Source: Candidatus Magasanikbacteria bacterium GW2011_GWC2_37_14 (GTDB taxonomy: Bacteria; Patescibacteriota; Patescibacteriia; Magasanikbacterales; UBA922). From it: DNA of 64,000 nucleotides. The position numbers and the translations under genes were made by a program. Of this stretch, positions 24,560 to 64,000 are shown piece by piece; the first letter of the stretch is position 1, and each line of letters starts with the position of its first letter. The stretch covers positions 40,316 to 104,315 of the forward strand of contig LBSX01000008.1 of NCBI GenBank assembly GCA_000990355.1, read 5' to 3'. The notes under the pieces are model-generated. The model was not told where the DNA came from, did not search any database, and saw only the letters and a program-made list of their open reading frames with translations.

Positions 24560-24645
24560 TTCCTTAGCGTCATTCCCGCGCAGGCGGGAATCTTACACTA
24601 GTTAAAAAGATTCCCGCCTGCGCGGGAATGACGCACGAAGAAAGG
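24560..24645. repeat. Family B palindromic repeat pair (GTCATTCCCGCGCAGGCGGGAAT ... ATTCCCGCCTGCGCGGGAATGACGC)
   Basis: Two inverted copies. Relatives occur at 4930, 8566, 11905, 52068 and 62226. Confidence 0.8.
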
Positions 24646-24693
24646 TGGCAATGACAAATTGATACTGAGTAATAAATTACAATAATTATATAT

Positions 24694-25095: not shown

Positions 25096-25100
25096 TATAT

Positions 25101-25622: not shown

Positions 25623-25632
25623 AATATTTATT

Positions 25633-26340: not shown

Positions 26341-26349
26341 TAAAAAATT

Positions 26350-26715: not shown

Positions 26716-26735
26716 TTAGTTTTATTTTAAATGAT

Positions 26736-27122: not shown

Positions 27123-27123
27123 T

Positions 27124-27531: not shown

Positions 27532-27536
27532 AATTT

Positions 27537-30660: not shown

Positions 30661-31362
30661 ATGCACCATCCACAAGTAAAACATACAATTGAGATTTTTA
30701 AAAAATTGTTTGCCAATTTGCCACCCTTGGTGCCACCAGAAGTGGCCAATGAAATGGAACATGCTCTTATTCACTTACAAAGTGATTATTTGTTGACACC
30801 AGAAGAAATGGATAATATGGTAATTGCTTTTGGTAAAAAAATTTGGCCATATTGGAAAGCTTTTGAAGAATTTTATGCTTTGTATCAAGGCAAGTTGGGA
30901 GAAAAATTTTTACTAGGCAAATTAAGTACTGGTGTAAAAAAGCATTATATTTTATTTAAAGACCATGGCGCTGATTACAAAGATTTGCGAATGGGCAAAG
31001 GTGCAGAATTTTTTTCTTTGGAAGAAAGAATGGAATTTAAAGGTGCTTTGGTAGAGATAGACAATGAGTTAAGAAAATATGTACAACAAGAAGTGCTGTC
31101 GGTTGAAAGAACAAAATACGAAGATTTAATAATTAGTTTTCAAACTATTTTTGAGGATATTGAAAAAAGATTGGGTACTTTGCGCTTAATGGCCGAAGAC
31201 GAAGCCGAACACCCTCAAATTGCTTCGGAAATAAGAGAACAGGTAAAAGCTTTTGAATTTGGTTTATGTTTGCTGGGGCCTCATAGTCGGCTAAGTGAGC
31301 TGGTAGAATTTGAAGATTATTACCTGGAAAGAAAAATGACTAAAAAAATATTAGGAAAATAA
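30661..31362 (+). CDS. Hypothetical all-alpha protein (233 aa)
   Basis: Long ORF with a sigma70-like promoter upstream (TTGACA-17-TATACT at 30268-30296). No recognisable motif. Confidence 0.5.
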   Translation: MHHPQVKHTIEIFKKLFANLPPLVPPEVANEMEHALIHLQSDYLLTPEEMDNMVIAFGKKIWPYWKAFEEFYALYQGKLGEKFLLGKLSTGVKKHYILFKDHGADYKDLRMGKGAEFFSLEERMEFKGALVEIDNELRKYVQQEVLSVERTKYEDLIISFQTIFEDIEKRLGTLRLMAEDEAEHPQIASEIREQVKAFEFGLCLLGPHSRLSELVEFEDYYLERKMTKKILGK

Positions 31363-31365
31363 AAC

Positions 31366-31470
31366 CCCCCCAGCTCCACTACGTTGCGCCGGGCAGGCTA
31401 GTAAACTTTGTTAAAAAGATAGTCTAGCTTGCCAGGCGCAGTGAAACGGAGACTGGGGGGGGATTGTTTT
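31366..31470. repeat. Family C 95-nt long-hairpin element, copy 1 (cccccc-arm-loop-arm-gggggg)
   Basis: Identical, apart from one loop base, to 62564-62665. Lies between convergent genes. Confidence 0.85.
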
Positions 31471-39909: not shown

Positions 39910-39983
39910 TGGTATTAGTTTTTGAACAAAATACTCGCCAAGGCTGGCGGGTATTTTTGTTTAAAAAAGCGGGAGGAGGAAAT

Positions 39984-41297
39984 ATGCGAGAGGGTGCGTT
40001 GCTTTTGCCTGAGTTTAGTTCGTTGTATCGATTTCGTGAGCCAGACGTGAGGCAGTATCAACAGCAGAAGGGAGTGGAACAGATCAAGCAGGAGAATGAT
40101 CTGTTTACAGACCCAATTAATGGATGTGATTGTGTCTTTACCTCTCACCGAATTGGAACAGTGCTTGTGGCGCCACGATCTCAGTGTTTGACGCGTTTTC
40201 CTGGGCACAGCTTGCCTGGTCCTGGTGGTAATTGCCAGATTAACACCGGAGCTTTGGAGTGGAATCGTTTTCAGGAACTCGCCAAATTCGCAGGGATTCC
40301 AGTGCTCGGAGATTGTCAGTTGGTATCGACGGTAGCAGAGCCGAAATTGCCGTCGTGGGATTGGTTGGGTGTGGCTGAGCCGGATATATTTGTCTTGAGT
40401 CCCATCATTGTCCAAACGTTGCCGTGGGGTGAGGCTGAATGGCAGATGTATGTTGAAGGGTTGCGACATAGTCTGCGTCAGGTGCACAATTGTAGCATGG
40501 CGAAGATTCTGTCGTTGGCACGCCAGGCTTGGGACCAACACGGTAAAATGATCTATGACAGCGATGCACTCCTGTGGGCAGAGAAAATTATGTGCGTCGT
40601 GGGCAAAGAGAATTGTGATTTGAATGCGATTTTCGAGTTGGAAGCGGCGGTTAGCTGTCGACAGTACTCTCGCGATCTCCGTATTCATAGTCGGGGTGTT
40701 TACCGCGGCATGTGGATCGAGGTTGGAGAAGTTGGACTCGCTTCCATCAAGGCAACGGAGTTGGTTATGCCAGTGCGTATTATTCAAGAGCTCCAGAGTC
40801 TGTACAAGAACGGTTTTGCTCCCATCGTGGTGAATGAGTATGGGTGCAATACGGATGGTAGTCATCGTCATACGACTGCCTGGCTCTGGAATTTGCTCAA
40901 GGCTATTGGATCGTTCAATTCGGGAGTGCTCCAATCGCGTGTCACCGAATTCGTCGTGAAGCATTGTCTGGCCATGGGTCCGATCATCACCCGTGAAGTA
41001 TTGCGTGTGTTGTCCGAATTGTTGGCTAATCACCGCCAACTCTTGTTCGAAGAAATCATGCCACAAGTGCAGAGATATAATCCGATTGCTACTTTGCCGG
41101 TCATACTGCTCAATGAGTATTCGGCTGGCACGGTTGTGAAGAAGGAATATGATGAAGGCACGGCAGTGCGGCGTGTTGATCCTGAGACGTATCGGTTGCT
41201 TGCCAATAACCCTTCCTTCACCCTTCCGGCACGTGGTCCCTATCACCGTACGGACCGATCGATCCTTCCCTGGTTTCAAATTCTGGAAAAGGAGTAG
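39984..41297 (+). CDS. Unknown 437-aa protein encoded on a GC-rich (about 52%) island with atypical codon usage
   Basis: Strong RBS GGAGGAGG-4-ATG. The plus-strand translation is complex and protein-like, with conserved Cys/His clusters (CDC, NEYGCNTDGSHRH). The equal-length minus-strand ORF is low-complexity R/S-rich and judged to be a shadow. Confidence 0.55.
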   Translation: MREGALLLPEFSSLYRFREPDVRQYQQQKGVEQIKQENDLFTDPINGCDCVFTSHRIGTVLVAPRSQCLTRFPGHSLPGPGGNCQINTGALEWNRFQELAKFAGIPVLGDCQLVSTVAEPKLPSWDWLGVAEPDIFVLSPIIVQTLPWGEAEWQMYVEGLRHSLRQVHNCSMAKILSLARQAWDQHGKMIYDSDALLWAEKIMCVVGKENCDLNAIFELEAAVSCRQYSRDLRIHSRGVYRGMWIEVGEVGLASIKATELVMPVRIIQELQSLYKNGFAPIVVNEYGCNTDGSHRHTTAWLWNLLKAIGSFNSGVLQSRVTEFVVKHCLAMGPIITREVLRVLSELLANHRQLLFEEIMPQVQRYNPIATLPVILLNEYSAGTVVKKEYDEGTAVRRVDPETYRLLANNPSFTLPARGPYHRTDRSILPWFQILEKE

Positions 41298-41481
41298 GTG
41301 TTCTTTCTTGGCCTGTCCCTCGGCTATTCAATAGAGGTGATAGTGAGCCGGCATTTTCTCCGGCAATTCACTTTGTCGACAAACAAAACTAAATAACTAC
41401 TGTTTTATTGCAGTAGTTTTTAGTTGACCTTTTCGATTATTTGTAGTTTAATATTGGTATTCACATAATGCTTATGTGTTC

Positions 41482-42144
41482 ATGAAACCTTTAAATAAAG
41501 TTAAAATAGAATGGTCGCCAAAATTTGCGTATGCTATTGGTTTGATAGTGACTGATGGAAATTTATCTGGTGATGGAAGACATATTTCTTTCACTTCAAA
41601 AGACTATGATTTAGCATTTTTATACAAGGAATGTCTTGAATTAGATAATATTGTTGGTAAAAAATCTAGAGTGGCCGGTGCAGAAAAAATATACAGTATA
41701 GTTCAGTTTGGCGATGTAAGTTTTTATAAATTTTTATTGTCCATCGGGTTAACACCAAACAAATCAAAAACTATTGGCAAACTTAAAGTACCAAGAAAAT
41801 ATTTTTATCACTTTTTGCGTGGTTGTTTTGATGGAGATGGTAATATAAATGAGTTTAAACATCGAGAAAGTCAACACACACAGTTAAGAGTTAGATTTTT
41901 TTCTGCAAGTAAGAAGTTTGTTGATTGGCTAAGGGGAAATACTATTAAAAATGGGATAAAAGGCTATTATGGAAGTGTAGGGAAAAAGAAAAGTGTTTAT
42001 GTTTTGGAATTTGCTAAAGCCGATTCAATAAAGTTATTAAACTTGATTTATAAAGAAAATTGTGGTATCTTCTTAGAAAGAAAGTATTTAGTAGCTAAAA
42101 AATATTTGCTGGCGTGGCGGAATTGGTATACGCGCTTGCCTTAG
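41482..42144 (+). CDS. LAGLIDADG-family homing endonuclease (two-motif, monomeric type)
   Basis: Motif 1 FAYAIGLIVTDGNLS and motif 2 FLRGCFDGDGNIN. Start taken as the ATG at 41482. The 3' end overlaps tRNA-Leu by 37 nt. Confidence 0.8.
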   Translation: MKPLNKVKIEWSPKFAYAIGLIVTDGNLSGDGRHISFTSKDYDLAFLYKECLELDNIVGKKSRVAGAEKIYSIVQFGDVSFYKFLLSIGLTPNKSKTIGKLKVPRKYFYHFLRGCFDGDGNINEFKHRESQHTQLRVRFFSASKKFVDWLRGNTIKNGIKGYYGSVGKKKSVYVLEFAKADSIKLLNLIYKENCGIFLERKYLVAKKYLLAWRNWYTRLP

Positions 42145-42191
42145 AAGCATGTTCCCGAAAGGGATTGAGAGTTCGAGTCTCTCCGCCAGCA
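42108..42191 (+). tRNA. tRNA-Leu (anticodon TAG), class II with a long variable arm
   Basis: Hand-folded: acceptor GCTGGCG/CGCCAGC, D-loop with GG, anticodon loop CTTAGAA, variable arm CCC-GAAA-GGG, T-arm GAGAG-TTCGAGT-CTCTC, discriminator A. Confidence 0.75.
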
Positions 42192-42194
42192 CAC

Positions 42195-47962: not shown

Positions 47963-48409
47963 TGTCAGGCATTCATAAATGAATTGCACCACGTCCGCAT
48001 ACGTTTGGACCTCTGGGTATAACAATAAAGTTAAACGACAATGTTTACTTACATAAAATTATACTTAGATTAACCAGGCGTGGCAATTGACTTTTCTGTT
48101 AAATTGATCGCTTGAAGGCGATCTTTTTTTCCACGAAAAGTGGCGTAATGAAATAAGCCACTTGGAGTAGGAACCGCGTGATGAGCAAAGCGAATTTTAC
48201 GCGGTAAACACGGTGCCACATCGTGGCAGGCTCTCAGATCACAGACAGCGTAGATAAAAATCTAAATTGTCTGTGGCAAGAGATTTAGGGATAGAACTTT
48301 GACAATTCAAATTAAAAATATTAAATAGGTCAATTCAAAAATAAGCGGTCTTATTAAAGATTTAATAAGATAAAAAGAAAGCACAATTGTGTGTTTTCGT
48401 AGTATGCAT

Positions 48410-51690
<3,281 letters not shown>

Positions 51691-51748: not shown

Positions 51749-51858
51749 GTCTAGGTGTCATGAGCGAGAGGGTCACACCCGATCCCATCCCGAACTCGGC
51801 AGTTAAGCCTCTCAGCGTCGATGATAGCGGCAACGCAAAAGTAGACCGACGCCTGGAC
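51749..51858 (+). rRNA. rrf: 5S ribosomal RNA
   Basis: Helix I GTCTAGGTG/CGCCTGGAC closes. Internal CCCGAACTCGGCAGTTAAGC and GTAGACCGACGCC blocks match 5S. Confidence 0.8.
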
Positions 51859-51894: not shown

Positions 51895-52340
51895 ATGGCG
51901 GTGTTTTTTTTGTCTCCTCCTTACGAAGGAGGAGTACCCCGACGTCGCAGTCGGGGGGAGGTGGTTAGCAAATCCCCTCTAGAGAGGGGTGTCGCGTCAG
52001 AAGCGACGGGGTGTGTTGGTTTCCCTCCCCTACGAGGGGAGGATTAGGGTGGGGTTTCGTCACCGTCGTCTGTCATTCCTGCGCAGGCAAGAATCCACCC
52101 GCCTGCCATCGCTATGCTCTAGCATTAGCGGGCAGGGAAATCGTCCAATTACTCTTACCTCCATGGAGCAAAAACTTCGCGCTAAACAAACACTGCGGAA
52201 AATTTAGGACTCGTCATTCGTTTTTGCTCGTGCGAGCCTAAAGAGGCTCTAGACGAGCAAATCCTTCTTCGCTATAGAGCTCCGAAGGAACACTCTTCCT
52301 CGCCTCTAAATTTTTACCTTGTGTTTGTGCGCGCGTGAGT
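51895..52340. repeat. Dense cluster of GC-rich hairpin repeats (families A and B plus further palindromes) downstream of 5S
   Basis: ctcctccttacgaaggaggag, ccccgacgtcgcagtcgggg, cccctctagagagggg, tccctcccctacgaggggagga, gtcattcctgcgcaggcaagaat, tttgctcgt...acgagcaaa, and GTTTGTGCGCGCGTGA (also present at 62487). Confidence 0.75.
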
Positions 52341-52347
52341 GTTGTAA

Positions 52348-53121
52348 TTATTTTTGTTTTATACTTTTGGACTGTCCCCAAATAATTTCAAACTGCTGTT
52401 TCATCATCTCTGCCATTTCCGGGCTTTCAATTAAGAATCCGTAATTTTCTTTTTGTGAAGAAATAAAACGCACAGTGTTGGCATAAATTGTATAGCCCAA
52501 AGAAAAATCAATATTTTTTGGAGCAATACGAATTTCTCTTTTTAATTCTACATCATTTTTAAAAAAATCATACTTAGTTTTAGCGGTTGCTTGCATCTGT
52601 GGCCAAATTACTTTAATTTGAATATTTCTTTCAGCACGCTTTTTGTGGAATTCTTGGTAAAATTCGCTACCCAATAATTTAATAATTTTTTCTACTGGCC
52701 AAAGCACATAAGCAGTGGTGTCGCGATAAAGCAACATGTCTTTCATCATGTGTTGTAGTTCTTCTCGTCCTTCAAATAATTGTAAACGCGGTTTGGTGGG
52801 GCTGTTTTTTTTGTAGTAAGTATTTTTTAATTCTGCTAAAGTACTTTTAGCCGTTAAAATGTTTTTTTGTTTTTCTTCAATTAATAACTCAATAATTTCT
52901 GGCTTTTGTATTGTAAAAATTTTAATATTATTTTTTTGTGACTCAACTATTAAGCCTGTCTTGGTTAGATTTTCTAATAAATCATAAATAGCTGTGCGCT
53001 TAACTCCAGCTTTTTGAGCCAGGGTAGTAGCACCAGTTGGCCCACTTTCTAAGGCAACTAAAAATATTTCTTTTTCTAAAGGTTGTAAATTAAACAAGTC
53101 CAAAATTTTGTTTATTTGCAT
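52348..53121 (-). CDS. TrmB-family transcriptional regulator
   Basis: N-terminal wHTH (LEKEIFLVALESGPTGATTLAQKAGVKRTAIYDLLENLTKTGLI) and a C-terminal sugar-sensing domain. Divergent from the ABC transporter operon. Confidence 0.7.
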   Translation of the reverse strand: MQINKILDLFNLQPLEKEIFLVALESGPTGATTLAQKAGVKRTAIYDLLENLTKTGLIVESQKNNIKIFTIQKPEIIELLIEEKQKNILTAKSTLAELKNTYYKKNSPTKPRLQLFEGREELQHMMKDMLLYRDTTAYVLWPVEKIIKLLGSEFYQEFHKKRAERNIQIKVIWPQMQATAKTKYDFFKNDVELKREIRIAPKNIDFSLGYTIYANTVRFISSQKENYGFLIESPEMAEMMKQQFEIIWGQSKSIKQK

Positions 53122-53211
53122 ATTGTTGTGGTTTTGTCACGACACTGTATACAATACTCTGATTTGAGAGTATTGTCAAGACAGGTTAATTAATTTTTAA
53201 TTTTTTAAAAT

Positions 53212-54261
53212 ATGGCAATTCATATTTTCAAAAAACATTTTAAAAAAATGTTTAATACTAAAATTTTGATTTTAGTGATGGTTGTAAGTTTTTCAGTAGT
53301 TGCATTAGCTGGCTGTTCAGTGAATCAAAATGTTGCCGAACCAACATCTGTTTTACCAGTTGTCCAAACAGTCAGAACTGCTTATATGCCAATTACAGCC
53401 AATTTATCTCTTTTTGTAGCGTTAGAGCAAGGATTTTTTAAACAAAATGGCCTTAATATTGAAGCTTCTGAGGCCACTACACCCAATGATATTGTGGCTG
53501 CTTTAGTGTCTGGTAAAATTGATTTTGCCCCAGTTTTGGCATATACCATTGTTTTTCCATCTGCTATACAATATCCGAATACTTTTAAAATATTTTCTTC
53601 CACCGAAGAAACAGAAACTAATTATACTGCCAGCATTATTGCCAAAAAAGATTCCCCTATCAACTCTTATCAAGATTTACGTGGTAAAAAAATTGGGGTT
53701 TATGGAGGGTTGGTTCAAGTAAATTTTCTTAAAGCCATACTTACTGGCATGAAAATAAGCCTAGCTGAAGTTGAAATTATTGAAATTAATCCAAAACTTC
53801 AAATTCAAGGACTTTTGGCTGGCGAATATGATGCCTTATCAACTACTGAACCAACTTCTAATATTGCCTTGTTTAGTGGTCAAACTAAATTGGTATCTAA
53901 CAACCCTCGGGTTAAATACATTATGTCGCCATTCCCATCAACGGCAGCAGTACTGGCTACTAAATTTATAAATGAAAATAAAGTTGCGGCTCAGGCCGTG
54001 GTAAAATCACTCAATCAGGCAATTGATTTTATAAACAATAACCCGGCCGAAGCTAAAAAGGCCATGTTAAAATATACACCGATTCCAGTAGAATCGGCTG
54101 ACAAAGTTCTTGCCGATCTAAAATTATTTCATTATGCGAAATTGGGTGAGGAAAATCGTACCCAAGTTCAAAAATTTGCTGACTATCTGTATGATAATAA
54201 ATTGCTTAAAACTAAAGTAGAGGTTAATTCCTTATTTGGTGATGGATTATTAGAGCTATAA
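53212..54261 (+). CDS. ABC transporter substrate-binding lipoprotein (NMT1/SsuA/TauA-like)
   Basis: Lipobox LAGCS, and NMT1-type periplasmic binding fold over 349 aa. Confidence 0.7.
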   Translation: MAIHIFKKHFKKMFNTKILILVMVVSFSVVALAGCSVNQNVAEPTSVLPVVQTVRTAYMPITANLSLFVALEQGFFKQNGLNIEASEATTPNDIVAALVSGKIDFAPVLAYTIVFPSAIQYPNTFKIFSSTEETETNYTASIIAKKDSPINSYQDLRGKKIGVYGGLVQVNFLKAILTGMKISLAEVEIIEINPKLQIQGLLAGEYDALSTTEPTSNIALFSGQTKLVSNNPRVKYIMSPFPSTAAVLATKFINENKVAAQAVVKSLNQAIDFINNNPAEAKKAMLKYTPIPVESADKVLADLKLFHYAKLGEENRTQVQKFADYLYDNKLLKTKVEVNSLFGDGLLEL

Positions 54262-54263
54262 AC

Positions 54264-55034
54264 ATGCCAAATCTTGCTATAACAAATCTTACCAAAATTT
54301 ATAACGCACAAAGTAAAAATCCACAGTTAGTGTTTGATAATTTTTCTTTAGAAATTAAATCTAACATTATTGTGGCAGTAGTTGGAGTAAATGGCTGTGG
54401 CAAAACTACCCTGCTTAATTGTTTGGCCGACTTAATACCATTCGAATTGGGACGTATTAAAATTGATGATAAAGATAATCAAAATACTAAGATTGGTTTT
54501 GTTTTTCAAAATTATCGTGAGTCATTACTGCCATGGTTAAAAAATATTGATAATGTCGCTTGTACTCTGGAACAATCAACGTTGTCTAAACTTGAAAAGC
54601 ATGTTTATATTAAAAATTGGGCCGTTGAACGTAATATTGTATTGCCGTGGGGATCTTACCCCTATCAGTGTAGTGGTGGACAACAGCAGTTATTAGCGCT
54701 TGTGCGTGAATTTATCAATCAGCCAAAATTACTTTTAATGGATGAACCATTTACAGCGCTTGATTATGAAAAAAGATTGGCTTGGCGGCAACAACTTGAG
54801 TTGCTGTGGCAAAAATGTCCTACTACAATAATTTTAGTTTCGCATGATATAGAAGAAGCCATTTATCTTGCTGATGAAGTGATAGTACTTGGGAATCAGC
54901 CTACTAAAATTTTTGGACATTATACAATTGATTTGCCTCGTCCTCGTGTGCCGGTTTTGCTTCAGAGCGAAAAGTTTTCTGAATTGTATCGTAAGGTGTC
55001 ACAATCATTTTTGCAAACTATTCCTGTGCTATGA
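54264..55034 (+). CDS. ABC transporter ATP-binding protein (SsuB/TauB-like)
   Basis: Walker A GVNGCGKTT, signature SGGQQQ, Walker B LLLMDEPF, H-loop SHD. Confidence 0.85.
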   Translation: MPNLAITNLTKIYNAQSKNPQLVFDNFSLEIKSNIIVAVVGVNGCGKTTLLNCLADLIPFELGRIKIDDKDNQNTKIGFVFQNYRESLLPWLKNIDNVACTLEQSTLSKLEKHVYIKNWAVERNIVLPWGSYPYQCSGGQQQLLALVREFINQPKLLLMDEPFTALDYEKRLAWRQQLELLWQKCPTTIILVSHDIEEAIYLADEVIVLGNQPTKIFGHYTIDLPRPRVPVLLQSEKFSELYRKVSQSFLQTIPVL

Positions 55035-55771
55035 AATTTAATATTCTTGGTATTTTAATTATATTTTTAGTTTGGGAATTATTATCTTTGTTTGTAAATA
55101 GATTATTTTTACCTTCGCCTGTGGCAGTAATAAATAATTTGTTTGCGTTATTAGATACACCAGAATTGTATGGTGATATTTGGGCTACTTTTAAGCGAAC
55201 TATTGTTGGTTTATCAATGGGTACAATTATTGGGGTGATAATTGGGATTTTGTTAGGTTTTTTCCGTCCGCTCTACAAAACTTTACGTTTGCCTATGGAT
55301 TTTATTCGTTCTATCCCCACCACAGCATTGTTTCCTCTTTTTATTGTGCTTTTTGGTTTAGGAGATTTAGTTAAAATATTTGTGTCGGCTTGGGCGGCAT
55401 GTTTAATAGTACTTGTTAATACTCTTTATGGTTTCCAAAATATTTCACAAATACGGCTGCTAGTAGGCAAATTAAAAAAGTTTTCTTTTAGGAAAACAGT
55501 TTGTTTGATTATTTTGCCTTCTACACTTTCATATATTGCCGCTGGTATTCGCGTTAGTCTTTCCTTTTCTCTAATTGTTGAGTTGGTGGCGGAAATGTTT
55601 TTAGGTTCGCAAAATGGTTTGGGGCATAGAATTTTTGCCGCTTCTAGTGTTTTGGCAATGGAAGAAGTTTATGTAGGAATTTTGTTAATAGGATTTTTGG
55701 GGTATGTTTTAAATAGTTTGATGCTGTTCTTAGAACATAAAATAATTCATTGGTCAGGGCAAACATCGTGA
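55031..55771 (+). CDS. ABC transporter permease (SsuC/TauC-like)
   Basis: Six TM helices and the EAA-like loop typical of the BPD_transp_1 family. Overlaps the ATPase stop by 4 nt. Confidence 0.8.
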   Translation: MKFNILGILIIFLVWELLSLFVNRLFLPSPVAVINNLFALLDTPELYGDIWATFKRTIVGLSMGTIIGVIIGILLGFFRPLYKTLRLPMDFIRSIPTTALFPLFIVLFGLGDLVKIFVSAWAACLIVLVNTLYGFQNISQIRLLVGKLKKFSFRKTVCLIILPSTLSYIAAGIRVSLSFSLIVELVAEMFLGSQNGLGHRIFAASSVLAMEEVYVGILLIGFLGYVLNSLMLFLEHKIIHWSGQTS

Positions 55772-55859
55772 TTTAAAGTGATTTTTATTAAAACAAAAAA
55801 AGAATTAAATTTTTTCGCGCCAAAATCTAATAGTCGCAGACAGTGGCCGCTTCAAAAAT

Positions 55860-56735
55860 CTAATTCTTTTTTTGTTTTAAAATATTTATAAAATATATTA
55901 TTCCCCACACAACAAACGGCACACTCAACCATTGCCCGGTGGTTAAGCCAAAATAAGTTGGAAATTCTTTAACAAATTCAATTATAAAACGAGAAGAAAA
56001 ATAGAGTATTAAAAATAAATGAAAGATAAAAAGATTTGGTAGTTTTTCTTTGTCGCGTAAAGTTACACCACGCGACACGTATTTTTTATAACTAAAATAT
56101 AGAATTATAAATATTATAAGTAACGCCAGTGCTTCGTAGAGCTGTGCAGGGTGGCGTAGGACAGGGTTTAACTCGTAATTGGGGAAATATACACCCCAGG
56201 GTAAATTAGTGGCTCTGCCGACAATTTCCGAGTTAAAGAAATTTCCAATCCTAATAAACATTGCCAAAAGTGGGATAGGAATGATAAGGATGTCCAGAAT
56301 TTTACGCCAATCTAATAACCCCCCCCGCCCCCCTTTTTCAAGGGGGGTAACGTCGTTTTTCCCCCTTAATAAAGGGGGATTAAGGGGGTTGTTGGCTTTT
56401 ATTTTGATGAATAAAAAAAATGTTAATAACAAACCAATTGTCATACCATGGCTAGAAAGCCCACCATGATTAATCATAATCATTTCTAGCGGATGGGTAA
56501 AATAAAAAGTAGGCTCGTAAAATAAAATTTCTCCTAGTCGAGCGCCAATTAGTCCGCCAACTATTAGCCAAGTACATAAATCATAAGCCAAATTTATTGG
56601 ATATTTTTTTTGTTTAAATAATTTAGCAATAATATAAATTGCTATTCCGACACCGAGAGCCAAAAAAAGACCGTACCAGCGGATGGTGATAAAACTGTAT
56701 TGGAATAGGATTGGATTAAGATTATTAGTAATCAT
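55860..56735 (-). CDS. lgt: Prolipoprotein diacylglyceryl transferase carrying an in-frame, repeat-encoded 25-aa insertion
   Basis: Lgt signature FIRIGNFFNSEIVGRATNLPWGVYFP and an N-terminal WYGLFLALGVGIAIYI. The residues NPLNPPLLRGKNDVTPLEKGGRGG are encoded by a family A repeat at 56316-56390. Confidence 0.8.
   Translation of the reverse strand: MITNNLNPILFQYSFITIRWYGLFLALGVGIAIYIIAKLFKQKKYPINLAYDLCTWLIVGGLIGARLGEILFYEPTFYFTHPLEMIMINHGGLSSHGMTIGLLLTFFLFIKIKANNPLNPPLLRGKNDVTPLEKGGRGGLLDWRKILDILIIPIPLLAMFIRIGNFFNSEIVGRATNLPWGVYFPNYELNPVLRHPAQLYEALALLIIFIILYFSYKKYVSRGVTLRDKEKLPNLFIFHLFLILYFSSRFIIEFVKEFPTYFGLTTGQWLSVPFVVWGIIYFINILKQKKN
56316..56390. repeat. Family A GC-rich palindromic repeat located inside the lgt coding sequence
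   Basis: cccccctttttcaaggggggtaacgtcgtttttcccccttaataaagggggattaagggggtt. Compare 62518-62552, cctcccctttataaggggaggattaaggaggggt. Confidence 0.8.
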
Positions 56736-56811
56736 AGGTTACTGGACATTATTGTATTTTTGTGTTTAAATAGTTCCAAACGACCCAAGTGGGTTTTTTG
56801 GGAGGGACGAT

Positions 56812-57132
56812 ATGCCATCGGTTTTGGTAGTGCGGGAAGAGGATCTCAAGCGGTGTCCGAAGGCCTTTCGGGATTACGTGAGCGAGTTCTTCGCGAGGTA
56901 CATGATCTGGGGCGTGCGAGTTCGTTATGCCGCTACCTATTCCTTCGAGCCCAGTGGCGGTTACCGCAAGGGTCACGCACCTTCGCACAGCGTGGAGCTC
57001 GCCAGGTTCACCGAGGGGCTGGCTGGTCAGTCTCTAAATAGCTGGATGAACCAGGCGGCGAGACAGGACATCGTTCTCCATATACCTGTCGGTCAACACG
57101 CAAGTGGTTCATCGTGGGCCGATGACGACTAA
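56812..57132 (+). CDS. Hypothetical 106-aa protein on a GC-rich (about 58%) islet
   Basis: RBS GGGAGGG-6-ATG. Followed by a long imperfect hairpin (aatcgacttgccaccatgt...acatggaggttttgcaagtcgatt) at 57150-57235. Confidence 0.45.
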   Translation: MPSVLVVREEDLKRCPKAFRDYVSEFFARYMIWGVRVRYAATYSFEPSGGYRKGHAPSHSVELARFTEGLAGQSLNSWMNQAARQDIVLHIPVGQHASGSSWADDD

Positions 57133-57262
57133 TGGAGGTTAGAAGAATGAAGTGTCGTGCACCGCCGAAAGGACATGGTTGGGATGAGAATCGACTTGCC
57201 ACCATGTTTTTCTCTAAAGTTTTTTAGTGAAAGACATGGAGGTTTTGCAAGTCGATTTTTGT

Positions 57263-58036
57263 TTACTCTAACAGTAACAACGCCATCATTACTGCCACAC
57301 CCAAAATAGAAATTACAAGTTGTAAAGCAGATTTTTTAGCATTGGTTTCTTTGTGAAGTTCTGGTACCAAGTCCGAGCCAGCAATATAAATAAAACTGCC
57401 GGCGGCAAAAGGAATTAAAAAAGATGTAATATGGGGAATAAATTGGCTAACTAAAATAGCAATTATTGCGCCAAGTATAGCTGTTAAGCCAGTAATAAAA
57501 TTTAAAAATAAAGCGCGTTTTCTGTTGTAACCGCCATGCAGTAATATACCAAAATCACCGATTTCTTGAGGAATTTCGTGTAGAATTACCGCAAAAGTAG
57601 TGGCAAGCCCAAGTGGAATATTTACCAAATAACTGCCGCCAATAATTAAGCCATCAATAAAATTATGTACCGTGTCGCCAATTAAATTCATTTTGGCAAA
57701 AGGAGCTACTTGCACGTGGTCGTGATGTTCTTCCAAACATTCGGTAGAATGGGTGTGGTGACAATGATGCCAGTGAATAATTTTTTCCATGACAAAAGAC
57801 AAGCCAATACCTAGTAAAACGTATAAAGAAACTTGTAAAGTAAATCCAGATTCTTCTACTGCTTCTGGCAAAAGATGAATAAAAGCATCGGCGAGCAAAG
57901 CACCAGCCGAAAAACTTACTAAGTAAATTAAAATTTTGCGTAGTTTTTCTTCTTTAATGGAAATTGAAGCTAGCCCAATTAGGGAAATTAAGCTGACGAT
58001 GGTAACGCTTAAAATTGAATAAATTATTGCGGTCAT
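57263..58036 (-). CDS. ZIP-family divalent metal (zinc) transporter, ZupT-like
   Basis: HEIPQEIGDFGILL signature, a His-rich loop (HWHHCHHTHSTECLEEHHDH), and 8 TM helices. Confidence 0.8.
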   Translation of the reverse strand: MTAIIYSILSVTIVSLISLIGLASISIKEEKLRKILIYLVSFSAGALLADAFIHLLPEAVEESGFTLQVSLYVLLGIGLSFVMEKIIHWHHCHHTHSTECLEEHHDHVQVAPFAKMNLIGDTVHNFIDGLIIGGSYLVNIPLGLATTFAVILHEIPQEIGDFGILLHGGYNRKRALFLNFITGLTAILGAIIAILVSQFIPHITSFLIPFAAGSFIYIAGSDLVPELHKETNAKKSALQLVISILGVAVMMALLLLE

Positions 58037-58887
58037 AAATTTATTTTAATCATTATGGGACAGTGGTCAGAACCAACCACTTGGTCCATAATTGTAGCAT
58101 CTTTTAAATATTTTTTCAAGAGTTTGCTAATAACAAAATAATCAATCCGCCAGCCAATATTTCGACGACGGGCGCCAAAGCGGTAAGTCCACCAAGTATA
58201 TTTTATGTCTTTGGGGTGAAGTTCACGAAAAGTATCAATCATTTTATTCTTTAAAAATTTATCAAAACTCGTGCGTTCTTCAATAGTAAAGCCAGCATTT
58301 TTTTCATTTTCTTTTGGATTGGCCAGATCAATTTCTGTATGAGCTACGTTAAAATCCCCAGTAAAAATAACAGGTTTTACTTGCCCTGAGCTAGCCGAAG
58401 GGGTTTGTTCCAAATTTTTAATATGTTTAAATATTTTATTATTAAATTCAATTTTAAAATCAAGGCGCGATAAATCATGGCGAGTGTTGGGGAAATATGC
58501 ATTTACAAAATAAAATTTTTCAAATTCAATTGTTTGTACTCGGCCCTCGCTATCGAATTTATCTAGTCCTAAGCCATTAATAACAGCAATATCTTTTTTA
58601 TTTTCTCGCTGTGGGTTCGCTCCGCTAGGTCCTCGCTTCGAAAATAAAAAAGCTATTGTTGTATCCTTAATCAAGATCGCCGTGCCGGCATAACCTGGTC
58701 GTTCGGCCGAATTCCAGAATTCTGTATAGCCCGGAAAATCTAATTTAGCGTCAAAGCGATCCTTCTCGGCAATTTTAACTTCTTGTAAAGCTAAAATATC
58801 TGGTTGATATTTTTTTAAGACATCTAAAAAGCCATTACGCAAACAGGCGCGAATACCATTTACATTCCAGCTCATTAAAGTGATCAT
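58033..58887 (-). CDS. xth: Exodeoxyribonuclease III / AP endonuclease
   Basis: MSWNVNGIR ... LALQEVK ... a C-terminal DHCP motif. Start moved to the ATG of MITLMSWNVNG because the track start is a TTG. Carries a possible roughly 20-aa insertion (SKRGPSGANPQRENKKDIAV) encoded by a GC-richer segment at 58600-58660. Confidence 0.8.
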   Translation of the reverse strand: MITLMSWNVNGIRACLRNGFLDVLKKYQPDILALQEVKIAEKDRFDAKLDFPGYTEFWNSAERPGYAGTAILIKDTTIAFLFSKRGPSGANPQRENKKDIAVINGLGLDKFDSEGRVQTIEFEKFYFVNAYFPNTRHDLSRLDFKIEFNNKIFKHIKNLEQTPSASSGQVKPVIFTGDFNVAHTEIDLANPKENEKNAGFTIEERTSFDKFLKNKMIDTFRELHPKDIKYTWWTYRFGARRRNIGWRIDYFVISKLLKKYLKDATIMDQVVGSDHCPIMIKINL

Positions 58888-59066
58888 ATTAGCAGATAAC
58901 AAATAGCAGTTATCATATGACAATGATAAAACAAAAATTTGTTTTTGGCAAATTGTTATCTGCTATCTGCTATCTGCATCATGACAATTGTCCACAGGCA
59001 CCTACTCTTGCCAAATTGCTTTATTCTTGGTATATTTTTTTTATTAAAATTATAAGTAAATACTAT

Positions 59067-59453
59067 ATGGCAAAAGATCGTTACCTGGAAATTAAAGAAT
59101 CAGTTTTGGATCACATTCAGACTTTGTTTGATGAAATGGAAGAAGAAATGGCTATGAGTCATCAAGAAAAATATGCTTTATTAGAAGATTCTTTTGAGAA
59201 TGCTACGGATGAGGACGAATTAAAAGTAGCCTTTGAACAATGGTATGCCGAACACAGTGAAGATTTGAATTTGGATTTTAAAGTAGATGAATTGTGGGAC
59301 AAAGCAGTGGGTGGTGAATTAAGTTATGATAATTTGAAAGATACCGAAGATGAAGAAGAAACCAGTGAAGATTTTTTGGGTTTAAAAGAAGAAGACGAAG
59401 ATGATGAAAAAAAACACAAAAATGAATATAGTGATGGGAATGATGAGTACTAA
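59067..59453 (+). CDS. Hypothetical acidic protein (128 aa; D/E-rich C-terminus)
   Basis: Start moved to the ATG at 59067, downstream of a TTGCCA-17-TATATT promoter. The upstream part of the track ORF covers family D repeat copies. Confidence 0.45.
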   Translation: MAKDRYLEIKESVLDHIQTLFDEMEEEMAMSHQEKYALLEDSFENATDEDELKVAFEQWYAEHSEDLNLDFKVDELWDKAVGGELSYDNLKDTEDEEETSEDFLGLKEEDEDDEKKHKNEYSDGNDEY

Positions 59454-59578
59454 TAATGTACGAAATACGAAAAGTCCGAAATTACGAAACACAAAATCTG
59501 CCAAATTGGTGGGTTTTTTTATGTCTTGAATATTTTTTTTGCCAGTGCTATATTACTTGGCAGTAATAATAATTTTTT

Positions 59579-60766
59579 ATGGAAAATGAAACTTTTAATG
59601 CTTTGATTGCCCAGGGTGGAGGGCCAACGGCCGTGATTAATCAAAGCTTGGTAGGGGCTATTTTGGAGTTAAAAAAACAGCCAAGTGTTGGCCGGATTTT
59701 TGGTTCGCATTTTGGAGTAAAAGGAATTTTAAAAGAAGACTTTATTGATCTAACAAATTTGGCCGAAGTAGATTTGGAAGCCATTGCCAAAACTCCAGGT
59801 TCGGCTTTGGGTTCTACCCGTGACAAACCAGATGCCGAATATTGTGCAAAAATGTTTGAAGTAATGAAAAAAAACCAGATTAAATATTTTTTCTATATTG
59901 GTGGTAATGATTCGGCCGATACTTGTAAAATTGTTAATGAAGAAGCCAAAAAAGTTAAATACGAATTACATACTATTCATATTCCCAAAACCATTGATAA
60001 TGATTTGATGGTGACCGATCATTGTCCAGGTTTTGGTTCAGCAGCTAAATTTGTGGCCCAGGCTTTTATGGGAGTAAATTTAGATAATGCTTCTTTGCCC
60101 GGAATTTATTTGGGAATTGTGATGGGTCGGCACGCCGGTTTTCTTACTGCCAGTTCGGTTTTGGCCAAACAAAATTCCGAAGATGGCCCGCATTTAATTT
60201 ATACTTCCGAACGGCCGTTCAATATTCATTATTTTGTACGTGATGTAAAAGCAGTGTATGAAAAATATGGCCGTTGCGTGGTAGCAATTTCCGAAGGGAT
60301 TATTGATGAAGAGGGCACACCTATAGCTTCCAAACTTGCCAAACAAGTAGAACATGATGCGCATGGTAATGTACAATTATCTGGTAATGGTATTTTAGGA
60401 GATTTATTGGCCGACACCGTAAAAAGTCATACCGGGATTTCACGGGTACGAGTAGACACTTTTGGTTATTTACAACGTTCTTTTGCTGGTTGTGTCAGCG
60501 AAGTTGACGCCAAAGAAGCGCGCGAGGTTGGTGTAAAAGCAGTGCAATTTACTTTTTCCGGTGATGTTGATGGTTCAGTAGTAATTAAGCGCGAGGGCGA
60601 GTATAATGTGAGTTATGCTTTGGTAGATTTGGCAGAAGTAAATGCTAAAACCAAAAAAATGCCACCAGAATTTTTTGCTTCCGACAATATGGTGAGTCAA
60701 AAATTTATTGATTATGTTAAACCATTGGTAGGTGAATTGCCAATTATTAAAAAATTAATTAATTAA
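59579..60766 (+). CDS. 6-phosphofructokinase, probably pyrophosphate-dependent (PfkA family)
   Basis: N-terminal QGGGPTAVINQS, FFYIGGNDSADT, and a PKTIDNDL catalytic block. Confidence 0.8.
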   Translation: MENETFNALIAQGGGPTAVINQSLVGAILELKKQPSVGRIFGSHFGVKGILKEDFIDLTNLAEVDLEAIAKTPGSALGSTRDKPDAEYCAKMFEVMKKNQIKYFFYIGGNDSADTCKIVNEEAKKVKYELHTIHIPKTIDNDLMVTDHCPGFGSAAKFVAQAFMGVNLDNASLPGIYLGIVMGRHAGFLTASSVLAKQNSEDGPHLIYTSERPFNIHYFVRDVKAVYEKYGRCVVAISEGIIDEEGTPIASKLAKQVEHDAHGNVQLSGNGILGDLLADTVKSHTGISRVRVDTFGYLQRSFAGCVSEVDAKEAREVGVKAVQFTFSGDVDGSVVIKREGEYNVSYALVDLAEVNAKTKKMPPEFFASDNMVSQKFIDYVKPLVGELPIIKKLIN

Positions 60767-60777
60767 AATATTTTTAT

Positions 60778-61770
60778 ATGAGTGAATTAAATAATATTGC
60801 AAAACAAATGGTTGCCCCAGGCAAGGGTATTTTGGCTGCCGATGAAAGTACCCCAACAATTGGTAAACGCTTCGCCAAAATTGAAGTAGAAAATAATGAA
60901 GATAATCGTCGTGGTTATCGTGAATTACTCTTTACTGCACCAAACATGGGTGAATATATTAGTGGAGTAATTATGTATGACGAAACTATCCGTCAACGTG
61001 CGAGTGACGGTCATACTTTTGTGACAGTTTTGGAAAAGCAAAACGTATTGAGTGGAATAAAAGTAGATGAAGGAACAGAAAGTTTGGTAGATTCGCCAGA
61101 AGAAGTAGTTACCAAGGGTTTGGAAAATTTACCAGCTCGTTTGCCAGAATATGTAAATATGGGAGCTAAATTTTGTAAGTGGCGCGGGGTAATAAAAATT
61201 GGCGAAAATTTGCCAACTGCCAATTGTGTACAAATGAATGCTGAGCGTTTGGCCAAGTATGCAAAATTGTGCCAAGAAAATAACTTGGTCCCAATTGTGG
61301 AACCAGAAGTTTTAATGGACGGTGGTCATACAATAGAAAAATGTTATGAAGTAACAAAGAATGTTTTAGATGTTACTTTTGTTGAATTAAAAAAAGCTGG
61401 AGTAGAATTGGGTGGAATTATTTTAAAACCAAATATGGTTATTTCTGGTTCCACTTGCGAAACTCAAGCTAGCGCCAAAGAAATTGCCGAACTTACCGTA
61501 AAATGTTTAAAAGAAACTGTGCCTGCCGAAGTATCAGGAATTGCCTTTTTGTCTGGCGGACAAAGTGAAGAATTGGCAGCCGAAACTTTGAATGAAATAA
61601 ACAAAATAGCAGTTGATTGTCCTTGGCAATTATCCTTTTCTTATGGTCGGGCTTTACAAGCTTCTACTTTAAAAGCTTGGGCTGGTAAATCGGAAAATAT
61701 TGTAACTGCACAAGAAACATTTTTAATGCAAGCTAAAAAAACTAGTTTAGCTAGAGATGGCAGGCTTTAA
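60778..61770 (+). CDS. Fructose-bisphosphate aldolase, class I
   Basis: GKGILAADES hallmark, and a Schiff-base lysine region (LEGTLLKPNMV-like IILKPNMV). Confidence 0.85.
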   Translation: MSELNNIAKQMVAPGKGILAADESTPTIGKRFAKIEVENNEDNRRGYRELLFTAPNMGEYISGVIMYDETIRQRASDGHTFVTVLEKQNVLSGIKVDEGTESLVDSPEEVVTKGLENLPARLPEYVNMGAKFCKWRGVIKIGENLPTANCVQMNAERLAKYAKLCQENNLVPIVEPEVLMDGGHTIEKCYEVTKNVLDVTFVELKKAGVELGGIILKPNMVISGSTCETQASAKEIAELTVKCLKETVPAEVSGIAFLSGGQSEELAAETLNEINKIAVDCPWQLSFSYGRALQASTLKAWAGKSENIVTAQETFLMQAKKTSLARDGRL

Positions 61771-61778
61771 TTTTAAAT

Positions 61779-62147
61779 ATGTTAATAAAAAAATTTGCCA
61801 ATCAAAAAGAAATTATTGCTGGAGACAATTGTCTTTTAAGGGAGTTTATTAACGTGGAACATGGTGATAAAGTAGACTGTCGTTATAGTTTGGCTTGGTC
61901 CAAGATGCCTGTTACAAAAAAAACCTGGAAGCACACCATGAAAACTTCGGAAGTATATTTTATTTTAAAAGGCAAAGGCAAAATGTATATAAATGATGAA
62001 GCAGAAGAGGTTGGTGTATATGATACAGTTTATATTCCACCTAATGCTACTCAATATATAGAAAATATTGGTGAAGAAGATTTAGAATTTATTTGTATTG
62101 TTGACCCGGCTTGGAGAAAAGAAGACGAAGTTGTTTTGGAGAGTTAG
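61779..62147 (+). CDS. Cupin-domain protein
   Basis: Cupin motifs 1 and 2 (G(X)5HXH-like region ...KHTMKTSEVYFILKGKGKM... and a PPNATQYIEN region), 122 aa. Confidence 0.55.
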   Translation: MLIKKFANQKEIIAGDNCLLREFINVEHGDKVDCRYSLAWSKMPVTKKTWKHTMKTSEVYFILKGKGKMYINDEAEEVGVYDTVYIPPNATQYIENIGEEDLEFICIVDPAWRKEDEVVLES

Positions 62148-62149
62148 GC

Positions 62150-62290
62150 CGTCATCCCCCTCTTGACCTCGAGGGGGTAGGCCTGCCCGACATGCCGTCA
62201 AGGCAGGCGGGGGGAGTTTGCCGGAGCTGTTTGTCATTCCTGTCCCGTAACCTGGTACGGGATAAACTCCGGCAGGAATCCAGAAATCGT
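62150..62290. repeat. Family A plus family B palindromic repeats
   Basis: ccccctcttgacctcgagggggtaggcctgcc...ggcaggcggggggag, and gtcattcctgtcccgtaacctggtacgggataaactccggcaggaatcc. Confidence 0.75.
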
Positions 62291-62563
62291 CTAATAAAAT
62301 CAAAACTACTTTTCAGTAGTTTTTGTTTTATATTCATTTTACTTTTTGTCACCAAAAAGTAACAAAAAGTGCCGGGGTAAAAAACTCGCGCCTTCAACTA
62401 AAGATTAAAGTATTATCTATTCAAGCCCTGGGCGCTCAAACAGTTTTACCCCTGGACCCCAGGTTTTTTCTGTGGTGTGTAAATGTTTGTGCGCGCGTGA
62501 TTGAGTGTTTCTTTTTCCTCCCCTTTATAAGGGGAGGATTAAGGAGGGGTATTTTACAAACAA

Positions 62564-62665
62564 AAAATCCCCCAGCTCCACTACGTTGCGCCGGGCAGGC
62601 TAGTAAACTTTATTAAAAAGATAGTCTAGCTTGCCAGGCGCAGTGAAACGGAGACTGGGGATTTT
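62564..62665. repeat. Family C 95-nt long-hairpin element, copy 2
   Basis: cccccagctccactacgttgcgccgggcaggctagtaaactttattaaaaagatagtctagcttgccaggcgcagtgaaacggagactgggg. One mismatch relative to copy 1. Confidence 0.85.
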
Positions 62666-62820
62666 TTATTTTCAACTATTTACAAAATAATTTTATAAAC
62701 ACTTGAGTCACCCTTGGTCCTCCAAGGCCAAGGTGCTCCTTCTTGTGAAAGGAAAAGATCGATAAAGAATGTGGGTTTTTTGCCCCGGAGCTGGGGCGGG
62801 TGGTGGGGTGGGGTAGCAGT

Positions 62821-63879
62821 TTAGCGGGGCTCCGGCGTGGTGGGGATGTCGCCACCGCTGAAGAACTTGTTCGGGTCGGCGAGCATCGCCTGGGTCGGTG
62901 GCGTTGTGGGGTGAAGTTCGTACTCCACCACGACCTCATTGCCGACGCGTTTCCAGGTGATGTGTCTCTTGTCCAGGACGTGGTTCACGGCGAAGGGGAA
63001 CTTCGGGTTCATCCACACCATCACCTCGTCGCCCTCCTTGAGCTGCTCGCCCCGTTCGCCCGGCTTGTGGATGTAGACGACTGTCGACATGCTCGGCATG
63101 TTCACCACGGCCACCAGGCGTTCCGTGCTCTCGATGGTGCGGGCCTGGAGCTTGATGAAGCACCAGCCCGCGTCTTCCATGCGACGGCGGAGGGACATGT
63201 ACCAGCTCACCTGGTGGACGTTCGACGGCCACTCCACGAAGTCGTTCTGGAGCGGCAACATCTCGAATTTCGGCGGGAACCGGTAGGGCTCTCCACCCAG
63301 CATGGCCCAGCGCAGGGCGCAGGGTATGGTGAGCGGGTAGTTCCTGGACCAGAGGTGCCGTCGGAAGCATTCCTTCTTGCTTCCGTCGCCGTCGGCCAGA
63401 CCCTTGAGTCCCTGGACGATCAGGGGGATCGTCCGCCAGGTGGGCACGAGGCGGAGCGAGAGCCCCACCTGAAGGCTCTGGGGCAGGTTGAGACGACGGA
63501 GAACTTCGATCGTTTGCGAGTTGACGACGCTCTCCAACCGATCCACCGCCCGGATGGCGATCGGCCAGGCATCGTGGTTGCCCAGCGAGGCGCGGATGTG
63601 CTCATAGATGATGAGCACCTTCTCGGGCTGTACCGAGGCGATCTCGAGGAGCATGTGCACCAGGTCGGAAAAACCGAATTTGGCCCAGGCCAGCGCGTTT
63701 TCCAGGAAGGCGCGCTGGAACTCGCGGCAGCAGGGCTCGTCGCCGAGACACGCCCTTCTGATCGTTTCGTCGTTCGCACCCGCTTCGATCAGCCAGCTGA
63801 AGACCTGGTGGATGTCCATCCCTTCTTCGGTCTCGAGCTTGGCCCACATCTCGCGCAGGAGCTCGGGCTGGATGGCCAT
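62821..63879 (-). CDS. Unknown 352-aa protein on a high-GC (about 62%) island
   Basis: RBS GAGGAGG-5-ATG on the minus strand. The translation is complex and W/R-rich. All plus-strand ORFs in this block are Arg/His/Gly-rich antisense shadows. Confidence 0.55.
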   Translation of the reverse strand: MAIQPELLREMWAKLETEEGMDIHQVFSWLIEAGANDETIRRACLGDEPCCREFQRAFLENALAWAKFGFSDLVHMLLEIASVQPEKVLIIYEHIRASLGNHDAWPIAIRAVDRLESVVNSQTIEVLRRLNLPQSLQVGLSLRLVPTWRTIPLIVQGLKGLADGDGSKKECFRRHLWSRNYPLTIPCALRWAMLGGEPYRFPPKFEMLPLQNDFVEWPSNVHQVSWYMSLRRRMEDAGWCFIKLQARTIESTERLVAVVNMPSMSTVVYIHKPGERGEQLKEGDEVMVWMNPKFPFAVNHVLDKRHITWKRVGNEVVVEYELHPTTPPTQAMLADPNKFFSGGDIPTTPEPR

Positions 63880-64000
63880 GTTGGCCTCCTCTCAGCAACC
63901 AAGGGCTTCTGTTCCCAGGGTTGCAAAGCAAAAATTGAGCAGTCGGACACCCTTGTGCCAACCGCAGGTTCTTTAACTAAACGTTATTTTCGCAAATAAC

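Follow-up and report, generated by a model that had tools for sequence, protein, structure and literature searches.

A strand-misannotated, GC-rich single-gene cassette, probably acquired by horizontal transfer, in Candidatus Magasanikbacteria GW2011_GWC2_37_14 and its protein family

A single-gene GC island and its coding frame

Examination of a 64,000-nucleotide (nt) stretch of the 190,491-bp contig LBSX01000008.1 (forward-strand positions 40,316 to 104,315; henceforth the window) from the genome of Candidatus Magasanikbacteria bacterium GW2011_GWC2_37_14 revealed a compact island of GC-rich DNA close to its right end, whose content is one gene, predicted to code on the minus strand for a protein of 352 amino acids (aa). 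The GC content of the whole window is 37.6% (about 0.37 outside the island). A profile in 100-nt steps rises from 0.30-0.38 at 62,600-62,750 to 0.58-0.68 across 62,750-63,950 and falls to 0.45 in the final 100 nt, which places the bounds of the island at about 62,770 and 63,920, its size at about 1.15 kb and its GC content at about 62%. A preliminary description of this DNA, prepared from the letters alone, had reported a jump to more than 60% GC from about 62,700, and this holds. It had also taken the window to end inside the island, which proves to be mistaken: the right edge lies about 80 nt inside the window end, and continuing beyond position 64,000, as that description had proposed, showed AT-rich DNA there in three other assemblies. 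Its six overlapping open reading frames (ORFs) become nine in our count (ORFs of at least 50 aa in 62,676-63,999), and the overlap on both strands, which it had noticed, is expected because AT-rich stop codons are scarce in such DNA. In the repeat comparison within the window, the sequence of the island occurs only once.

Two long ORFs compete for this region, namely the minus-strand frame at 62,821-63,879 (352 aa, 63.2% GC) and a plus-strand frame at 62,800-63,999 (399 aa), of which the latter is the one deposited as GenBank KKQ27593.1 and UniProt A0A0G0G942. The GC content at the three codon positions (GC1/2/3) is 0.615/0.405/0.875 in the minus-strand frame, a periodicity typical of a gene from a GC-rich genome, and 0.83/0.42/0.60 in the plus-strand ORF, which shows the mirror pattern. 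Furthermore, a ribosome-binding site (RBS), GGAGG, lies 5 nt upstream of the ATG of the minus-strand frame (plus-strand CCTCC at 63,885-63,889). The frame is settled by homology, as seven full-length relatives align in the minus frame; of the seven family genes tested, four have an interrupted antisense frame, and it stays open in just the three with the highest GC3. What keeps the plus-strand ORF open is solely the register of the two frames, in which its first codon position falls on the GC-rich third position of the real gene. We accordingly read the minus-strand ORF, from sequence and homology, as the real gene and the 399-aa ORF as its shadow. The same frame had been picked earlier by virtue of its RBS and its non-degenerate amino-acid composition, a choice that codon-position GC, the seven homologues and the broken antisense frames now bear out; of the description of its product as W/R-rich, the tryptophan part stands (3.4%), the arginine content being only mildly high (7.4%).

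An exact look-up returned KKQ27593.1 (UniRef100_A0A0G0G942) under the name 'hypothetical protein US42_C0008G0106', and the gene calls on the corresponding ENA and JGI contigs likewise choose the plus-strand shadow ORF. In the protein collection, the 352-aa protein is represented solely by a gene called on a Logan contig; as a consequence of the strand misannotation it is absent from NCBI and UniProt. The gene stands far apart from its host in composition and codon usage, as is characteristic of a genomic island: its GC3 of 0.875 compares with 0.273 +/- 0.049 in the 49 other long ORFs of the window, a difference of more than 12 standard deviations (SD), and host-rare codons, defined as those making up less than 10% of their synonymous family, account for 35% of its codons, as against a mean of 5.7% and a maximum of 13% in host genes.

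Could the island be something other than a chromosomal minus-strand gene? The plus-strand ORF is longer and is preferred by the GenBank, ENA and JGI gene callers, and GC-rich segments of AT-rich genomes are often RNA genes. Nevertheless, that KKQ27593.1 is the real gene, or that the region specifies a structured, GC-rich RNA without coding function, is scarcely credible: the codon-position pattern of the plus-strand ORF is that of a genuine GC-rich gene seen in a mirror, the homologues are conserved as proteins in the minus frame only, with the plus frame closed in more than half of those tested, and Rfam gave no match in the island at the gathering threshold and, apart from a tRNA, none at E <= 1 in six related loci. 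The preliminary description had itself named a misjoin with a contaminant contig as the thing that would undo it. The compositional step is indeed abrupt, contigs L011 and L012, from JGI and Logan, terminate in the adjoining repeats at about 62,200, and the genome itself was assembled from a metagenome, all of which might suggest a chimeric join to a GC-rich contaminant. However, both GC transitions are spanned by one de Bruijn unitig with AT-rich sequence at either end, Logan SRR3309152_424679 (L001), whose 1,324 bp equal window positions 62,711-64,034 with no mismatches and which is recorded in two runs. Moreover, the ENA MEGAHIT contig k141_1411140 (L010) matches the window over about 52,170-64,000, and the JGI contig Ga0209211_10006339 (L023) is identical to it over the window-equivalent 62,225-64,100, so that two further assemblies agree base for base; the Logan, ENA and JGI assemblies may share samples. 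A chimera is also implausible because the island coincides with a single complete gene whose promoter and RBS are correctly placed, and because the homologues likewise form islands on seven further contigs, which stem from different samples. Taken together, a misjoin is very unlikely.

Layout and genomic setting of the cassette

On the minus strand, the coding sequence (CDS) is preceded by a leader of about 120 nt (63,880-64,000), in which the GC content drops to 45% and which carries the Shine-Dalgarno sequence noted above. Just outside the window, at the window-equivalent 64,034-64,006, a promoter scan of the ENA contig (11,967-11,939) detected a TTGACA-17 nt-TATAAT promoter with an extended -10 TG, which matches the sigma-70 consensus at 12 of 12 positions. 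At the other end, the 3' untranslated part of the cassette (62,771-62,820, minus strand) contains a hairpin GCCCC-AGCTCC-GGGGC (plus-strand 62,782-62,797) about 25 nt past the stop codon. This hairpin is followed by an A-run and is not a canonical intrinsic terminator, and a terminator scan found no canonical site here. Together these elements, namely the predicted promoter, the leader, the RBS, the 352-aa ORF and the GC-rich hairpin, suggest that the island gene is an autonomous transcription unit.

The plus-strand genes on one side of the island code for phosphofructokinase (PFK), a class I aldolase (KKQ27591.1) and a cupin (KKQ27592.1). Between the cupin gene and the island lies a non-coding spacer of about 620 nt (62,148-62,770) stacked with intergenic repeats of the host, namely a GC-rich block at 62,150-62,290, a hairpin (TTCCTCCCCTTTATAAGGGGAGG...) at 62,513-62,550 and a 103-nt element with 46-nt inverted arms at 62,558-62,660. 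The repeats earlier said to adjoin the island are hence real. Copies of the hairpin family occur at 4,103, 8,955, 12,207, 13,172 and 52,020, and the 103-nt element recurs at 31,356-31,458 with 95-99% identity. Contigs L011 and L012, from JGI and Logan, break within this repeat spacer. More generally, several short GC-rich palindromic repeat families are found between host genes (for example, TTTCCCTCCCCTT..AAGGGGAGG and TGTCATTCCTGCG..GCAGGAATC), with sites at 4,103-4,127, 8,955-8,991, 11,909-11,933, 12,207-12,242, 13,172-13,241, 24,568-24,592, 51,911-52,095 and 62,513-62,550, and these intergenic repeats and the 103-nt element lead to contig breaks in other assemblies.

Beyond the promoter is an IS30-family insertion sequence (IS), followed by host genes including trmB and ispD. 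The IS encodes an intact 329-aa transposase with HTH_38 and rve domains, which lies about 90 nt past the promoter and is oriented away from the island gene. Its ends can be placed at an 11-nt inverted repeat pair (1,810-1,820 and 2,883-2,893 of the JGI contig), which would delimit an IS of 1,084 bp (window-equivalent 64,034-65,117) whose left inverted repeat directly adjoins the -35 hexamer of the promoter of the island gene; given this contact, the promoter may be under the influence of the IS. The ENA and JGI contigs derive from the same population and are identical in the island, every difference between them being within the IS30 region: the transposase region of the ENA contig is about 65% identical to that of the JGI contig and has an in-frame stop, and is probably a different IS copy joined in assembly. 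The island thus sits in a hotspot of mobile DNA, between a stack of repeats and an IS30-family element.

A sparsely populated protein family

An index-free search with HMMER against 1.84 billion representative proteins recovered six full-length relatives of the 352-aa protein (E = 3e-52 to 4e-13), and a seventh was found by a profile search with the C-terminal domain. All seven are 33-40% identical to the window protein over the full length, so that the family comprises eight sequences among approximately 15 billion. A word-seeded search starting from the single protein found only itself, and even the full alignment recovered only two of the seven relatives in this way. All eight members form clusters of one; they stem from Logan, JGI or ENA assemblies of groundwater or wastewater, and none comes from an NCBI genome; three of the contigs (L003, L004 and L005) are essentially identical in sequence. 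One host is named as belonging to the Candidate Phyla Radiation (CPR) and a second is presumably CPR-like. So far, the family is found only in low-GC bacteria of groundwater and wastewater. Its members share the motifs RTIP, LRWAxLGG, AGWRF, GxRGDxLKxGDEVMV and ELHPxxxPTxxMLxxPxxxF.

The neighboring genes differ at every locus and are mutually unrelated. In L002 they are uvrD and a gene for an ASCH-domain protein; in L003, nrdAB with the genes for tRNA-Phe and tRNA-Pro, the family gene being 320 nt downstream of the latter; in L006, a PAP2-domain gene and znuA; and in L007, secE-nusG-rplK, the family gene following rplK. A second 354-aa gene in L003, considered as a possible paralogue, was tested and proved to be unrelated. 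Eight contigs related to L007, with about 87% nucleotide identity in nusG-rplK, carry another gene, of 201 aa or 219 aa, after rplK, the far junction lying outside the contigs. As these relatives carry other genes in this place, the family gene appears to be accessory and to occupy a variable slot. The NCBI relatives of L003 are contigs that end just after nrdB. The relatives of the L007 host (L013-L020) have rplK without a following rplA and, after the variable 201-aa or 219-aa ORF, queA on the opposite strand, an arrangement that fits the L1-lacking Parcubacteria of the literature.

Signals flanking the gene recur across the family. Promoter-like TTGAC(A/T) ... TAT-type pairs are visible by eye upstream of the gene in L001, L002, L006 and L007, and in less regular form in L003 and L009, and the leaders that follow these pairs are 100-220 nt long. 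In all eight loci there is a GC-rich hairpin 10-30 nt past the stop codon, often followed by a second terminator of the A-tract/T-tract kind; these 3' hairpins are canonical, with T-runs, in L007, L008 and L009, and non-canonical in the window. A 56-nt 3' hairpin flank (L007 8,643-8,700; L008 1,410-1,466) shows 96% identity between these two loci, the proteins of which share only 46%; it may be an RNA or DNA element with a function of its own, have been exchanged recently or be a mini-repeat common to both loci. A part of this stem (CGTCGGCTTCTT) recurs in L009. In addition, a 14-nt leader motif is common to L003 and L024. The sharing of flanks between closer relatives indicates that the transferred or conserved unit includes short flanking segments. 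A conserved leader RNA or riboswitch was sought across the family, with neither a consensus structure nor an Rfam match emerging.

Predicted architecture and function of the protein

The preliminary description could place no motif in the protein and proposed a profile search; that search likewise came back empty, with no family at E <= 1 in Pfam, NCBIfam, PHROGs or PADLOC and no significant match in the PDB (best E = 0.71 by sequence and 0.068 by profile). A scan of seven members against curated families yielded only DUF4116, in one member, at E = 0.23. The protein has no signal peptide or transmembrane segment visible in its sequence, and we infer that it is cytoplasmic; its isoelectric point (pI) is about 6, as is that of the other members tested. 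With about one third of its codons rare in the host, its expression there should be limited.

A model computed with AlphaFold from the seven-sequence alignment has a mean predicted local distance difference test score (pLDDT) of 72 and a predicted template modeling score (pTM) of 0.68, the single-sequence model (pLDDT 45) being unusable. It shows a helical, repeat-like N-terminal domain (residues 5-195, or about 1-195), a low-confidence linker (195-224) and a C-terminal domain with a 6-7-stranded beta-barrel (239-320) followed by two short helices. The N-terminal domain varies in length among the members by way of extra helical hairpins. The invariant positions of the family are R190-W191-A192, G238-W239, H271, R276-G277, G283-D284-E285-V286 and E321-L322-H323-P324, and most of these residues, including H271, R276, D284, E285, E321 and H323, lie in the C-terminal domain. 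Foldseek searches against the PDB and BFVD gave no significant match (best E >= 0.006, template modeling (TM) score about 0.2-0.26); the weak top matches were tetratricopeptide repeat (TPR) and pentatricopeptide repeat (PPR) solenoids including designed PPR proteins, TTC5, which combines TPRs with an oligonucleotide/oligosaccharide-binding (OB) fold, and the OB fold of uS12. A relationship of the C-terminal domain to ASCH/PUA-like domains was also tested and gave only a trivial 8-residue match.

In light of the modeled architecture, the helical-repeat domain is probably a recognition scaffold and the barrel, with its invariant His/Arg/Asp/Glu cluster, a binding or catalytic module. Considering this architecture together with the genomic behavior of the gene, our best guess is that the protein acts as a conflict-type accessory, for example in defence, anti-defence or addiction, or binds nucleic acids.

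Family-wide GC excess

The compositional anomaly is a property of the family and not just of the window. All eight family genes are single-gene GC islands that stand 8-26 GC points above their flanks: gene and flank GC are 63% and 37% in the window, 65% and 51% in L002, 66% and 46% in L003, 46% and 31% in L006, 51% and 43% in L007, 56% and 42% in L008, 62% and 37% in L009, and 62% and 50% in L024. At the loci where neighboring genes are available, the GC3 surplus over them is 13-60 points. Gene GC tends to rise with host GC, a correlation that falls short of significance (Spearman 0.64, n=7, p=0.12). The direction of any compositional drift was assessed in seven members with regressions relating codon-position GC to genome GC, which Lawrence and Ochman reportedly introduced in 1997 and which are noisy for single genes. 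Codon position 3 points to a source GC of 45-72%, a value that in six of the seven members equals or exceeds the one derived from position 1; the exception is L006, which has the most AT-rich host. This is the reverse of what downward amelioration produces.

Local mRNA folding was compared with that of synonymous-codon shuffles. The family genes have z-scores from -0.8 to -4.3 (mean -2.9), six of the seven falling between -2.7 and -4.3, and are more extreme than 12 neighboring genes (mean -1.2; Mann-Whitney p=0.002); these controls include no GC-rich gene, and the excess may therefore be generic to GC3-rich genes. No conserved RNA structure was found inside the coding region across the family. 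On the whole, the family-wide GC excess is hard to reconcile with a simple transfer from donor to recipient.

Origin of the cassette

We favor, with a probability of roughly 0.6, the reading that the island is a true part of the chromosome, a single-gene cassette which Candidatus Magasanikbacteria GW2011_GWC2_37_14 acquired horizontally and too recently for its composition to have drifted toward that of the host. Under this scenario, the cassette, inclusive of its short 5' and 3' non-coding flanks, would spread horizontally among low-GC, mostly CPR-type bacteria, or would enter such bacteria from an unsampled GC-rich pool, in either case with high turnover. Several observations weigh against horizontal acquisition. 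The GC-rich reservoir that it needs is unobserved: the 1.84 billion representatives yielded no GC-matched homologue or donor, and BLAST searches of phage and plasmid collections gave no real match. No member was confirmed when GTDB species representatives, JGI metagenomes and IMG/VR were scanned with the protein and with the alignment, although the alignment-based scans, which used generic motifs and covered at most 600 stretches, are weak negatives. A search for inverted or direct repeats bracketing the island, such as terminal inverted repeats or a target-site duplication, found none, and no empty site has been demonstrated for the Magasanikbacteria host. Six of the seven members tested give no hint of downward amelioration, and consequently every copy would have to be young. 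Finally, the proposed function is deduced throughout.

These difficulties lend some substance to a different account, in which the gene is a long-term resident, or moves among low-GC genomes only, and its high GC content is actively maintained and no relic of a donor. Possible causes include selection for mRNA structure or stability at synonymous sites, slow translation by way of rare codons, and gene-specific GC-biased repair or conversion. The uniform presence of GC islands across the family, with no member in a GC-matched genome among the approximately 15 billion proteins, the regressions that run counter to amelioration, the tendency of gene GC to follow host GC and the excess of mRNA folding all point in this direction. 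Yet no mechanism is known to us by which a single gene would be pushed 25 GC points higher than the genome around it. Moreover, the gene appears to be accessory, being absent from close relatives of the L007 host, no consensus RNA structure was found across the family, and both the folding excess and the regressions are subject to the reservations given with them; long-term maintenance is hence an unlikely explanation, if the least unlikely of those set against acquisition. A bolder form of it, that the family constitutes a new kind of self-contained cassette in which GC-richness is intrinsic and maintained rather than the fading signature of a donor, is more doubtful again. It agrees with the finding of GC islands at all eight loci, with the absence of any known reservoir of matching GC content and with the lack of signs of amelioration in six of the seven members tested. 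One version would invoke a GC-ward drive or selection acting on the whole CDS, at which the folding excess and the conserved 3' hairpin hint; in another, which fits the same data, the gene would be adapted to being expressed in a different cell of high GC content, for instance that of the bacterium on which episymbiotic CPR bacteria live. The neighboring mobile element offers yet another route, whereby the island would be cargo of the IS30-family element, mobilized with it or transcribed from an IS-derived hybrid promoter. The intact transposase close to the promoter and the inverted repeat pair, the left end of which touches the -35 hexamer, speak for such a link. However, there is a single IS copy, with no second IS or matching inverted repeat in the window or on the far side of the island; the 1,084-bp IS (1,810-2,893 of the JGI contig) excludes the island; its GC content is host-like (0.34-0.40); its inverted repeat is short (11 nt, with 91% complementarity); and a transposase lies next to the gene in none of the homologous loci. 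We therefore consider it improbable that the IS carries or drives the island.

Other features of the host window

A second compositional outlier is a 437-aa ORF on the plus strand (39,984-41,297), with 50% GC and a GC3 of 0.54, as opposed to 0.27 for the host, and with no Pfam match; the exact protein sequence is absent from the protein collection with either start codon. It too has an equally long antisense shadow ORF (39,915-41,279). Downstream of it are a gene for a free-standing LAGLIDADG-type endonuclease (41,476-42,144) and a tRNA-Leu gene (42,108-42,192), and the region at 39,984-41,297 looks like another foreign insertion. Elsewhere, positions 23,913-28,046 hold an array of at least eight tandem small paralogues with a common 150-nt core; the four array genes scanned all match PF18895, a pilin of type IV secretion systems (T4SS) that resembles VirB2/TrbC. 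The pilin array and the second outlier make gene traffic plausible in this genome. The 23S rRNA gene (48,400-51,687) measures 3,288 nt against a model of 2,925 positions, which implies an insertion of about 360 nt; it is followed by the 5S gene (51,751-51,857), with no 16S gene within the window. The window also encodes three tRNAs and RecA (KKQ27532.1).

Significance and comparison with known systems

Islands resulting from horizontal transfer are well documented in Patescibacteria in general (PMC12455944), and a foreign accessory gene in a small genome is of a kind already known and ordinary in itself. What is new here is an uncharacterized protein family without a detectable relative or fold match, a demonstrable strand misannotation in public databases (KKQ27593.1 / A0A0G0G942 and the ENA and JGI calls), and a family-wide compositional anomaly without a known GC-rich source. 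Shadow-ORF errors of this type probably arise systematically where an AT-rich metagenome-assembled genome contains a GC-rich island. The family also offers a small system in which to ask how genes of foreign composition persist in CPR bacteria or circulate among them.

In its modeled architecture, a helical N-terminal domain followed by a C-terminal barrel, the protein resembles TPR/PPR proteins with a C-terminal OB fold or small barrel, such as TTC5 (STRAP), and the OB fold of uS12. However, the matches are insignificant (E >= 0.05, TM about 0.2) and come with no sequence or profile similarity, so that the likeness is one of architecture only. In its genetic organization, the cassette recalls the phage morons, which Hendrix and colleagues reportedly described as autonomous promoter-gene-terminator units of deviant composition lodged between conserved genes. 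Like these, it consists of a single gene with its own strong predicted promoter, a downstream hairpin, a deviant composition and unrelated neighbors at each locus, and in the L007 lineage the slot after rplK holds other genes in close relatives. Unlike morons, it lies outside prophages, next to chromosomal housekeeping genes (those for aldolase, PFK, ribonucleotide reductase, NusG-RplK and UvrD), and has neither a phage homologue that we could find nor matches among the PHROGs. With horizontally acquired genomic islands it shares the deviation in GC content and codon usage; the adjacent IS30-family element, the tRNA-Pro gene 320 nt upstream in L003 and the apparently accessory distribution may be further points of likeness. 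It differs from classical genomic islands in comprising just one gene (1.15 kb), in lacking an integrase, direct repeats on its flanks and a donor that could be identified, and, unusually, in that every known homologue is itself an island.

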